64,000 nt of DNA. Origin: an uncultured Gammaproteobacteria bacterium. Lineage in GTDB: Bacteria > Patescibacteriota > Patescibacteriia > Magasanikbacterales > UBA922. The stretch covers positions 147,437 to 211,436 of the forward strand of contig CAZTEU010000001.1 of the NCBI GenBank assembly GCA_964612105.1. Direction: 5' to 3'. The position numbers and the translations under genes were made by a program. Shown one piece after another: positions 19,142 through 21,141 of the stretch. Each line of letters opens with the position of its first letter. Within the stretch, counting starts at the first letter, position 1. The notes below the pieces were generated by a model, which was not told the origin of the DNA, searched no databases, and saw only the letters and a program-made list of their open reading frames with translations.

Positions 19142-21141
19142 CTACCATGTTCCTTAAACCAAGGCACAATAAATCTCAACATTACTCTTGTTATTGTAAT
19201 TGCTGAGAACATACTTAGTAATATTCCAATGAACAATGTTACAGCAAAACCTTTTACAAAACTAGAACCAAAACCAATCAACATTACACATGTGATTAGT
19301 GTTGATATGTTTCCATCACGAATAGAAGTCCATGCACGTATAAATCCTTCCTCAACTGCAGCCTTAAGACTTTTTCCATCTTTTAGTTCTTCTTTTAATC
19401 TCTCAAATATAAGAACATTAGCATCCACTGCCATACCTATAGAAAGTATAAACCCTGCAATACCGGCAAGTGTTAATGTAACACCTATCAATTTAAATAT
19501 AGCTAGTGTTAGTGCAATATATACAGATAGTGAAATTACAGAAAGTAATCCTGGAAGTCTGTAGTACAGGAACATAAATAGCATTACAAGTAAAACTCCA
19601 GAAACTCCAGCCTTAAGACTCTTTTCTAGTGAAGCTTGTCCTAGTGTTGCCCCTATTGCCTGCTGAGAAATAAGTTCTACAGGAACAGGCAAAGCACCAG
19701 CATTCAGTCTTTGTGAAAGCAATCTTGCTTCTGTGAGATTAAAATTACCTGTAATAACAGCTCTACCATCCGTAATTGCCTGTTGTACTGTTGGTGCACT
19801 TATAATGTTACCATCAAGAAATATTGCAATTGGTTCTCCTACATGCTTTTCTGTCAGATCTGCAAATAACTTTTTTCCTTCACTATCAAACGAAAGTGAA
19901 ACCTGTATAGCCCCTGTTTGTGAATTGGACACAACCTCTGCTCTTTCTAGCTGTTTTCCTGATAATTCTGTGTTTTGCCAAGGTTCTGCTGTTGGTAAAA
20001 TATCAGATGCGGTATTCTTCTTGGTGGATATGCGCCACAGCTCATATTCAACGGGGCTTTCTTTCTTATATATAACATGATATCCAAACTGAGTTTCCAC
20101 TGGTTTGACTATCTCTCCTTCTTGTACGGCAAATACAGCGTCTTCAAATTCTTTTACCATTTGCCCTCTACCAAAGGAACCCAAATCACCACCAGAGACG
20201 TTTGCTCCGGCTTCGTGCGAAAATTCTTTTGCTAGGGCCTCAAAATTACTTGCGTTTGCTTTTTCAAAAATCTCATGTGCTTTGTCCAGAGCTTCTTGTT
20301 TTGTGTATTGAGGATTCTCACAAGAGTTTGCTCCTAAATAACATATTAGTATATGACTAGCACTGACCTGTTCTTCACTTTTTCTACTAATTCCACGCTT
20401 CACAACATGGAAAGCATCGCCTGTGTCTATTAACTTATTTGTAATTGCTCCCTCACCCCTATTCTTTGCCCAGGCAATAATCTCTGGAGCCTGTGTTTCT
20501 GTAACAAAGCCCAGATAACCACCATTATTTTTAGATTGCAAGTCTTCCGAATATTCTCGTGCGATTTCTTCAAAGTCTTCTCCCCCTCTTACTTTATTTA
20601 GCGCTTCTTTAGTACGTGTTTCTACCTCATTATTAAACTCATCTAGTTCTTTCTGCTCATCTTCTGTCAATTCTCTTGGTGGGGTTGTGTTTTCTTCCTT
20701 AAATTCAAGAATAGGAGTCTCCCCTATCATATTTATAGCCTGATTAACATCTGTCACTCCAGGAAGTTCCACAACAATACGGTAATCATCACCCACCTTA
20801 GAAGTCTGCACATTAGGTTCACCAATACCAAGACCGTTTACACGTCTTTCTATCACATCTCTTCCACCTTCTACGGCTGCTGCTCGCTCATTTGCTTCCA
20901 AATTTGACACATCCGCCTGGTACACAAGATGAGCACCACCTTGTAGGTCCAGACCTAAAGCAAATGGTTTTTCTGGAACATTAGGTATTCCAACATGTGT
21001 AACATCGTTTACTTTATTGAAAACACGATTTGCAACAGTTGGCGCATCATATATTGCTGTAATTGCAAGAAGAGCAAATATACCAAAAATCCCCCAACGA
21101 ATCTTGGAGCGAAGCTGTGATTGTGTTTTTTCCGTTCGCAT
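19108..21141 (-). CDS. secD: protein translocase subunit SecD with an inserted parvulin-type PPIase domain
   Basis: 677 aa. P1 head GETPILEF, then approximately aa 150-365 = 1.5 PpiC domains (SASHILI...[43 protein letters not shown]). After that comes the canonical P1 base ([17 protein letters not shown]...ITGNF...AGALPVP) and 6 TM helices. Confidence 0.8.
   Translation of the reverse strand: [677 protein letters not shown]

Follow-up and report, generated by a model that had tools for sequence, protein, structure and literature searches.

Three genes of the Sec export machinery lie side by side on the reverse strand in the 64-kb stretch of DNA analyzed here (the window). The secA gene (21193..23970), recognized by its Pfam SecA domains, is located directly upstream of secD (19108..21141), and secD is followed by secF (18185..19141), which matches the Pfam families Sec_GG and SecD_SecF_C (E=1.4e-56) and the start of which, as the reading frames are called, overlaps the 3' end of secD by 34 nt. 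In related loci, secF is found 3' of secD on the shared strand in 76 of 80 cases and secA on the strand of secD in 64 of 80. The secD gene is an uninterrupted open reading frame of 677 amino acids, in which all sequence strings quoted in the preliminary description of this DNA are present. Its product passes the cutoff of the NCBIfam model for SecD, TIGR01129 (393.6 bits, cutoff 244.4), with a single match over residues 62-655 and model positions 1-397 that bridges the insert described below. Furthermore, the SecDF proteins of Thermus thermophilus and Deinococcus radiodurans (crystal structures PDB 3AQP, 5YHF and 5XAN) are its top matches in both sequence and fold. We conclude that the protein is indeed the SecD subunit of SecDF, the motor of protein export that is driven by protons. 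The host is a Magasanikbacteria-type bacterium of the candidate phyla radiation (Patescibacteria). The many locus titles reading "uncultured Gammaproteobacteria" were provisionally taken as placeholder labels, and the sequences that carry them group with the Magasanikbacteria.

The SecD Framework Around the Insert

The N-terminal part of the P1 base (residues 58-151; 20689..20970, reverse strand) contains matches to Sec_GG (PF07549, residues 58-77) and SecD_1st (PF21760, residues 94-151, E=1.9e-16), and aligns with residues 24-116 of the T. thermophilus SecDF. It ends in a hinge strand in which I144, L145, E146 and F147 are invariant or nearly so among the homologs. On the far side of the insert, the remainder of the P1 head and the strand leading back to the base (residues 388-487; 19681..19980, reverse strand) match the family SecDF_P1_head (PF22599) over residues 390-486 and profile positions 18-114 (E=3.1e-30), and the alignment with the T. 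thermophilus protein resumes at its residue 160. AlphaFold2 (AF2) places beta-rich head strands at residues 388 to 464, and both the base and the head of P1 are thus present. The RND-type bundle of TM2-TM6 follows (residues 488-660; 19162..19680, reverse strand), of which residues 488-656 match SecD_SecF_C (PF02355). It includes the proton-relay residue Asp573, which pairs with D340 of T. thermophilus in the alignment (by a manual count of positions) and does not vary in any of the 193 homologs.

The protein shares with the Thermus and Deinococcus SecDF an N-terminal TM helix, the P1 base and head, the RND-like bundle and the Asp in TM4. What differs is the N-terminal edge of the head, where about 43 residues in Thermus (117-159 in T. 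thermophilus) correspond to a 236-aa double parvulin in the window protein; moreover, secD and secF are separate genes in the window, unlike the SecDF of Thermus and Deinococcus. To judge from its sequence, the SecDF motor is intact, with the P1 head, the TM bundle and D573 retained and a normal secF alongside, and stimulation of Sec export dependent on the proton motive force (PMF) is predicted from membership in the SecD family. Because the SecD topology runs from one N-terminal TM helix through P1 to the TM bundle, as in the T. thermophilus SecDF, the insert should be extracytoplasmic.

A Parvulin Insert in the P1 Domain

The insert comprises 236 amino acids (residues 152-387; 19981..20688) between the Pfam matches to SecD_1st and SecDF_P1_head. 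It had been described as a parvulin inserted in frame into P1, the first periplasmic domain, and a Pfam scan confirmed this with Rotamase matches inside the open reading frame, the best at E=6e-38. Both Rotamase_3 (E=6.3e-38) and Rotamase (PF00639, E=2.9e-36) match in two stretches each, the best of which spans residues 252-359. The position given previously, 20046-20690 (about residues 151-365), was right as to location and too short in extent, since the insert continues to residue 387. Likewise, the P1 base and the TM bundle do follow the insert as had been proposed, only not directly, the rest of the P1 head coming first. It had also been considered that the PPIase might have replaced the P1 head; this is ruled out by the retained PF22599 domain, at the N-terminal edge of which the insert is situated.

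An AF2 model of the insert by itself reached a pLDDT of 89.9 and a pTM of 0.71, and the model of the full-length protein a pTM of 0.41, too low to establish how the parvulins are placed with respect to the head and SecYEG. Among sequences in the PDB, the insert spans both parvulins of SurA (query residues 20-208, E=1.6e-16). The PDB matches to PrsA and SurA were restricted to their parvulin parts, and Pfam searches of the window protein and of 10 representatives of its variants identified neither a SurA_N domain nor the trigger-factor-like NC domain of PrsA. Nor did the reading frame or the Pfam matches reveal an independent signal sequence or anchor for the parvulin module, which is internal to SecD.

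The inner module, here called PARV2 (residues 255-362; 20056..20379, reverse strand), runs from the beta1 motif SASHILI to the beta4 motif FGYHVIY. Its match to PF00639 (residues 263-359, E=2.9e-36) is full-length, covering profile positions 1-95 of 97, and the secondary structure in the AF2 model has the parvulin order beta1-alpha1-alpha2-alpha3-beta2-alpha4-beta3-beta4. The model superimposes on the PPIase domain of Pin1 with an RMSD of 1.9 A over 112 columns (TMt 0.84-0.86). The residues that we take to be H59, C113, L122, M130, F134 and H157 in Pin1 correspond to H263, E310, L320, M328, F332 and H355 in PARV2. Both histidines are found in 193 of 193 homologs, in agreement with the near-textbook PpiC signature previously ascribed to this module, and so is an acidic residue at position 310, which is Glu in the window protein and Asp in most homologs. 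The proline pocket is nearly as well conserved (F332 in 191, L320 in 187 and M328 in 170 of the 193 homologs). This pattern suggests that the catalytic residues of PARV2 are under selection, and we consider PARV2 to be a canonical parvulin with an intact active site and a predicted catalyst. The residues aligned to K63, R68 and R69 of Pin1 are C267, N272 and S273. A Pin1-like phospho-specificity was rejected because the basic phosphate-binding loop is missing, and by sequence PARV2 is of the non-phospho-specific Par10/PrsA type. A loop with the residues Cys267 and Cys274, which may form a disulfide bridge, occupies the site of the substrate-recognition loop in Pin1; the cysteine pair is present in 120 of 120 Magasanik-type proteins and absent from both other lineages (0 of 120 proteins each).

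A Proposed Nested and Permuted Outer Module

The outer module, PARV1 (residues 152-254; 20380..20688, reverse strand), was delineated by its alignment to the SurA P1 domain and by the first Pfam Rotamase stretch. It extends from alpha1 to beta4, with no beta1 in front, and is the least conserved region of SecD, with a mean pairwise identity of 48%. The equivalent of H157 is Asn in 140 of 193 homologs and that of H59 (position 370) is Arg in 147 of 193; the equivalent of M130 is Ala in the window protein and mostly Tyr in the homologs, and that of F134 falls in an alignment gap. With the dual histidines and the proline pocket missing, the sequence of PARV1 indicates a parvulin-related fold that is not a catalytic member of the family.

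A tail strand and a linker to the P1 head (residues 363-387; 19981..20055, reverse strand) follow PARV2. The AF2 model has a strand at residues 364-374, which is collinear with the permuted beta1 KASHILF in SecD of the Moranbacteria, and the window insert minus PARV2 aligns end to end with the Moran-type insert (E=3e-16). By mutual information uncorrected for phylogeny, the tail strand covaries with beta4 (residues 243-252) and beta2 (residues 209-213) of PARV1 (block Z 0.021 and 0.019; of the random blocks, 0.12% and 0.22% scored as high), and among the top 100 covarying pairs 13 link the tail to PARV1 and 1 links it to PARV2. Positions 245 and 370 are N and R in 128 sequences and H and H in 6, for which about 0.4 would be expected. 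De-permutation of the window PARV1 gave no gain in the Pfam score (54.4 vs 54.7 bits), and the tail strand is degenerate. PARV1 appears from the collinearity, the covariation and the co-occurring histidines to be a circularly permuted parvulin, in which the strand at 364-374 would be the displaced beta1.

We also considered the hinge strand PILEFK as beta1 of PARV1. This candidate is disfavored, as its residues are invariant and do not covary with the PARV1 strands (tail and SecD strand, block Z 0.005); we favor the tail strand, and the hinge strand may also pack on PARV1. A simple SurA-like tandem was likewise rejected in favor of nesting, since the insert model superimposes on SurA over 225-237 structural columns with an RMSD of 12-13 A over both modules and since the tail strand goes with PARV1 by covariation and collinearity. 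Three levels of nesting, with PARV2 inside PARV1 inside the SecD P1 head, are thus strongly supported, the topology of PARV1 being the predicted part. The preliminary description of a partial followed by a complete parvulin was correct for the second module, whereas the first is not truncated, appearing instead as a degenerate and permuted module around its partner.

Distribution and Authenticity

The insert and both of its junctions were identified in 224 species-representative genomes, mostly Candidatus Magasanikbacteria. It is the standard SecD of the Magasanikbacteria, and variants are standard in the Moranbacteria and the Peregrinibacteria/Gracilibacteria. SecD of the Moranbacteria has a single parvulin, in which the beta1 motif SHIL comes after the beta4 motif GxHII and both histidines are retained in 118 of 118 proteins. 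Its match to the Pfam profile begins at position 10, and at position 1 with a gain of about 4-5 bits once the sequence is de-permuted, which shows at the sequence level that this domain is permuted. In the Peregrinibacteria/Gracilibacteria, a related insert resides in a fused SecDF. The insert-bearing SecD proteins range from 570 to 1100 aa, and the outer module is fast-evolving and differs widely in size among the lineages.

In metagenome assemblies, a chimera or a frameshift by which secD becomes fused to an independent prsA-like gene is always possible a priori, which is the sole argument in its favor here. The insert is nested in a single frame with SecD P1 sequence on both sides, GC content and GC skew are unbroken across secD, and all of the best 120 matches contain both Rotamase and SecD domains. 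Since, in addition, the identical protein is encoded on 15 contigs, five of which are 0.2-1 Mb long, and the insert recurs with its junctions in the 224 species representatives, we regard an artifact as practically excluded; the misassembly or prsA-like gene in another frame that the preliminary description had cautioned about can be set aside.

Discussion

How the Sec translocon hands exported proteins over to folding factors is not settled, and the mechanism of SecDF itself is debated. Non-covalent parvulin partners of Sec have been documented (PMC9643414; PMC9987972; 10.1101/2025.04.25.650208; 10.1101/2024.09.05.611430). PpiD-YfgM in E. coli is a parvulin-domain partner at SecYEG (PMC9643414), and the PrsA-like Mdp dome in Mycoplasma cross-links to and assembles with SecDF (10.1101/2025.04.25.650208; 10.1101/2024.09.05.611430). 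Both PpiD-YfgM and the Mycoplasma pneumoniae dome of Mdp444/436/489 on SecYEG-SecDF place parvulin domains at the exit of the translocon and follow a similar logic of joining translocation and folding. They are separate proteins, in contrast to the covalent insert in SecD, and together with PrsA they are the nearest known analogs, all of them non-covalent. In the literature searched, with subscription-only articles and InterPro/UniProt annotations outside the scope, we found no account of a fusion of SecD to a parvulin, PpiC or rotamase domain, nor of a permuted parvulin, in line with the earlier suspicion that the architecture is undescribed.

PrsA of Bacillus and Staphylococcus has a non-phospho-specific parvulin like PARV2 and provides the best-scoring sequence match in the PDB (6XD8, 3.8e-18). 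Both PrsA and the SecD insert are located at the outer face of the cytoplasmic membrane, with freshly exported proteins as their presumed clients. PrsA is a separate lipid-anchored dimer with its parvulin within an N/C chaperone domain, whereas in the window SecD an NC domain was not detected, anchoring is provided by SecD and one module is circularly permuted. The pairing of a degenerate PARV1 with an active-type PARV2 resembles that of the inactive P1 and the active P2 in E. coli SurA. Unlike the insert, SurA is a soluble periplasmic protein with parvulins of canonical order that are embedded in an N/C core and have another interdomain geometry.

We hypothesize, with fair confidence, that the nested active and degenerate parvulins in the P1 head constitute a translocon-tethered foldase of the SecDF motor. 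The P1 head presumably swings across the exit of SecYEG to capture and pull emerging chains, and in this protein it would present the tethered foldase, so that PARV2 could catalyze prolyl cis/trans isomerization on newly exported proteins, while PARV1 may serve as a scaffold or substrate-binding adaptor, like SurA P1 and the inactive parvulin of PpiD. Such an architecture probably links folding to export in a direct way, and its likeliest role is that of a PrsA-like foldase/holdase carried by the head of SecD. In these bacteria with small genomes, the module might do the job of the lipoprotein PrsA in the Firmicutes; the question of a stand-alone PrsA was examined only over the 64 kb of the window plus flanking loci that total 0.87 Mb. 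The idea that the fusion couples translocation to folding was already put forward in the preliminary description and has become more plausible through the non-covalent precedents. The coupling itself, including that to the power stroke, is what we infer from the architecture, as are the activity, the substrates and the replacement of PrsA.

SurA, PpiD and PrsA act chiefly as chaperones, with a dispensable PPIase activity, and catalysis is therefore maybe not the key function of the insert either. The parvulins could be solely a holdase or capture arm that widens the binding surface of the P1 head against backsliding and aggregation, catalysis being irrelevant. Such a role would account for the retention of the non-catalytic PARV1, and PPIase-independent chaperoning is generally known as the norm for the three envelope proteins (for PpiD, PMC9643414). 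We nevertheless find it unlikely that this is all they do, because the catalytic and proline-pocket residues of PARV2 are conserved in the 193 homologs down to an insert identity of about 46% and the single Moran-type domain keeps both histidines throughout, a pattern unlike that of a generic binding surface.

It is more improbable still that the insert is a cis-acting regulatory or structural module for SecDF, such as a proline switch or plug for the movement of the head, or has a lineage-specific role outside general secretion, such as docking to the cell wall, pili or host-contact structures in these episymbiont-like bacteria. The insert does adjoin the hinge strand, the rapid evolution of the outer module and the wide range of protein sizes would suit such roles, and the cysteine loop at the position of the Pin1 substrate-recognition loop is confined to the Magasanik-type proteins. 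However, the open, conserved active site of the Par10/PrsA type suggests substrates in trans, and we know of no precedent for parvulins as autoregulators of a transporter.

A broader version of the tethered-foldase hypothesis, which we put forward only tentatively and hold to be somewhat less probable than not, is that parvulins in SecD are of ancient origin throughout the candidate phyla radiation. A permuted parvulin core of a kind not described before would have been joined by a second, catalytic parvulin, nested or duplicated in the Magasanikbacteria and the Peregrinibacteria, to give a self-contained translocation-folding machine that replaces PrsA and is coupled to the SecDF power stroke. 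With the module mounted on the P1 head, which the PMF drives, isomerization and holdase action would then be coupled mechanically to the stroke. By virtue of the covalent nesting of a parvulin in its head, the SecD protein represents a "Rosetta-stone" fusion, and if the feature is indeed ancient it would provide genomic evidence for SecDF and PrsA-like foldases acting as a single functional unit throughout the bacteria, matching a suggestion from recent cryo-ET of Mycoplasma.

The Sec-associated PPIases PpiD, PrsA, SurA and the Mdp dome were previously known as separate partners only. The covalent fusion is conserved across hundreds of species, which provides independent evidence from genomes for SecD and a parvulin foldase working together in place and time. 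The P1 domain of about 440 aa offers a compact construct for testing the coupling of translocation to folding. Furthermore, the three-level nesting, along with the permuted and catalytic-looking parvulin in the Moranbacteria, provides a case study of domain insertion, permutation and subfunctionalization. Finally, the fusion suggests a route to economical envelope proteostasis in bacteria with very small genomes.

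Insertion of parvulin modules into SecD

In the ORF list, secD (19108..21141, minus strand) encodes 677 residues and is flanked by secA (21193..23970, minus strand) and secF (18185..19141, minus strand), with continuous GC content and GC skew across the gene. Pfam placed Sec_GG at SecD residues 58–77, SecD_1st at 94–151 and SecD_SecF_C at 488–656, and assigned Rotamase_3 and Rotamase to two stretches, the best at 252–359 (E = 6.3e-38 and 2.9e-36), in agreement with the preliminary description, which had placed a parvulin inside the SecD ORF. The NCBIfam secD model TIGR01129 matched above its cutoff as one stretch (62–655) that bridged the insert. 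Since SecD residues 52–148 and 393–656 align with residues 24–116 and 160–423 of the T. thermophilus SecDF (3AQP), 43 Thermus residues (117–159) are replaced by 244 residues (149–392) at the N-terminal edge of the head, directly after the hinge strand. In this alignment SecD keeps the head, the transmembrane bundle and the TM4 Asp (D573, Thermus D340). The P1 head has not been replaced by the PPIase, as had been considered: SecDF_P1_head is still present at 390–486 (profile positions 18–114). The parvulin insertion was thus correctly located by the preliminary description, but its coordinates cover only residues ~151–365, whereas the insert extends to residue 387 (19981..20688, minus strand).

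If secF is taken as called, with a TTG start, it shares 34 nt (19108..19141) with the 3' end of secD. The real start could lie at an internal Met; if so, the two genes may be translationally coupled. Directly downstream of secF is a 470-aa ORF (16508..17920, minus strand) with an N-terminal hydrophobic segment, annotated as DUF8128 in the precomputed annotation and without a family in the Pfam scan. It may share an operon or function with secD-secF, since a homolog follows these genes on the same strand in 69 of 80 related loci.

Elsewhere in the window, a GC-rich island (24000..25800; 0.50–0.54 against a background of ~0.37) is possibly a horizontally acquired segment. It contains an internally duplicated 273-aa ORF (24149..24970, minus strand; direct repeat of 74 nt with 77% identity at 348-nt spacing, “MTVGDRTYEI” occurring twice), without a Pfam match and absent from 80/80 related loci, and the adjoining rpiB-like gene (25228..25767) is GC-rich too. 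A tRNA-Gln gene (14548..14619) adjoins a 332-aa ORF (13546..14544, plus strand), unrelated to SecD, that has both a Peptidase_C39-like domain and a bacterial TSP3 repeat.

Distribution of the insertion

The insertion is not an artefact. The identical protein was found on 15 contigs of the assembly collection, five of which are 0.2–1 Mb, and the one locus returned for it has the same neighbor genes. Rotamase and SecD domains co-occur in all of the best 120 database matches (61–100% identity, ~658–716 aa), the named organisms among which are Candidatus Magasanikbacteria or Patescibacteria. With each species represented by one genome, 224 genomes proved to encode an insert relative together with both junctions, the best 80 with essentially full query coverage at 46–59% identity. 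Together, these observations exclude the chimera that had initially been a concern. About 30 of the 80 best species-representative records, including a 1.23-Mb chromosome (OZ246405.1), are titled “uncultured Gammaproteobacteria bacterium,” yet their SecD groups with Magasanikbacteria; the titles look like placeholders or erroneous taxonomy.

When 1.84 billion cluster representatives were searched exhaustively and the best 150 scanned locally with HMMs, Pfam-confirmed parvulin inserts emerged at the identical SecD site in several architectures. The standard SecD of Candidatus Moranbacteria (~570 aa) has a single parvulin, with PF00639 in 120/120 top matches, and that of Candidatus Peregrinibacteria/Gracilibacteria is a SecDF fusion (~1015–1100 aa), with PF00639 in 118/120. 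A protein labeled Peribacterales (P0212, 1119 aa) has an additional SecF-type C-terminal domain, and proteins of ~775–940 aa with larger inserts have a similar insert layout. Two proteins closely related to the parvulin-bearing SecDF (P0412 and P0416, Peregrinibacteria-type, 962–978 aa) cover only 78% of the query without a Rotamase annotation; as possible natural loss variants, they would be helpful in comparisons.

A canonical parvulin, probably nested in a permuted one

The inner module, PARV2 (residues 255–362), has the canonical strand order beta1 to beta4. Mapped onto Pin1, H263 and H355 correspond to H59 and H157, E310 (Asp in most homologs) to C113, and L320, M328 and F332 to the proline pocket, a mapping in which PARV2 lacks the Pin1-type basic phosphate loop. 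Among 193 homologs, H263, H355 and an acidic residue at 310 are invariant, and the pocket is kept at F332 in 191, L320 in 187 and M328 in 170. Such strict retention suggests that proline binding or isomerization is under selection. The beta1-alpha1 loop, at the position of the Pin1 substrate-recognition loop, carries a Cys pair (C267/C274, “CYLGANSC,” 20320..20343, minus strand), present in 120/120 Magasanik-type and 0/120 Moran- or Peregrini-type proteins. Both Cys are kept in 188 and both lost in 5 of the 193 sequences, as would be expected of a disulfide.

The outer module, PARV1 (152–254), starts at alpha1 without a preceding beta1, lacks the Met/Phe pocket and has Asn for the second His in 140 of 193 sequences. 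It is also the fastest-evolving region (mean pairwise identity 48%, against 62% in PARV2 and 72–75% in the SecD core). The preliminary description saw a partial parvulin followed by a complete one; the complete module stands, but we read the first as permuted and degenerate rather than partial.

The Moranbacteria proteins offer a simpler case. Their insert runs from alpha1 to beta4 (SQFGYHIIKK), then through a linker to beta1 (VRASHILFK) and the head, and Pfam matches Rotamase only from profile position 10 onward. With the trailing strand placed first, the match reaches position 1, and the scores rise from 71.5 to 75.2 and from 91.6 to 96.3 bits. Judged from sequence, the Moran-type parvulin is thus circularly permuted, and the single permuted module retains all catalytic residues, including both His, in 118/118 proteins (P0141, P0275-P0393). 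We found no description of a permuted parvulin in the literature.

Several lines of evidence suggest the same arrangement for PARV1, with the strand after PARV2 (the tail strand, 364–374) as its displaced beta1. The tail consensus KEYELWRILV aligns with the Moran beta1 KEVRASHILF, and once PARV2 is removed in silico, the insert and its Moran counterpart align over their full length (E = 3e-16). In APC-corrected mutual information from 146 non-redundant sequences, uncorrected for phylogeny, the tail covaries with PARV1 beta4 (H245-R370, fourth strongest pair overall; block Z 0.021, a value reached by 0.12% of random blocks) and beta2 (Y209-E367, sixth strongest; block Z 0.019, reached by 0.22%). 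Its covariation with PARV2 strands is close to zero, and the top 100 pairs include 13 between tail and PARV1 and one between tail and PARV2; the canonical beta1 (258–266) instead covaries with PARV2 beta2. Positions 245/370 are N/R in 128 sequences and H/H in 6, against ~0.4 expected by chance, and by sequence H245/H370 is the parvulin dual-His motif, reconstituted across the inserted PARV2. De-permuting PARV1 of the window left its Pfam score unchanged. From the Moran collinearity, the tail-PARV1 covariation and the H/H co-occurrence, we read the architecture as a SecD P1 head holding a permuted, degenerate PARV1, which in turn holds a canonical, catalytic-type PARV2. PARV2 (27% identical to PARV1 and 39% to the Moran module, PARV1 and Moran sharing 30%) may have arisen by internal duplication of the permuted unit or by nested acquisition.

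AlphaFold2 modeled the insert alone confidently (pLDDT 89.9, pTM 0.71). In full-length SecD the insert reached pLDDT 84–96, but the global pTM was only 0.41, so that the interdomain geometry is unreliable. In Foldseek comparisons with the insert model, the Pin1 PPIase domain superposed with an RMSD of 1.9 Å over 112 columns (TMt ~0.85), and SurA covered 225–237 columns, but with an RMSD of 12–13 Å. The length-wise match of the insert is to both SurA parvulin domains, and its second half best matches PrsA parvulins.

Implications for protein translocation

PrsA is a separate parvulin protein at the translocon. Separate proteins are likewise PpiD-YfgM (PMC9643414), SurA with the holotranslocon (PMC9987972) and the PrsA-like Mdp proteins of Mycoplasma pneumoniae, which form a dome with SecYEG-SecDF (10.1101/2025.04.25.650208; 10.1101/2024.09.05.611430), whereas the SecD parvulins described here are covalent. 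The component parts and the functional logic are already known. We found no mention of a covalent SecD-parvulin fusion in the literature searched, and databases label these proteins simply “SecD.” The covalent, nested and permuted architecture appears to be undescribed, as does its distribution in the candidate phyla radiation.

The first fold matches of the whole SecD model are SecDF structures, with the F, I and super-F forms at the top. The working model of a swinging head derives from the SecDF structures of T. thermophilus and D. radiodurans. SecD topology places the insert on the outer side of the cytoplasmic membrane, as part of the head proposed to swing over the SecYEG exit. Neither the 64-kb window nor the related loci searched (0.87 Mb) contained a stand-alone parvulin gene. 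PARV1, comparable to the inactive SurA and PpiD parvulins, is probably a scaffold or adaptor, and the insert as a whole would most likely serve as a translocon-tethered, PrsA-like foldase or holdase.
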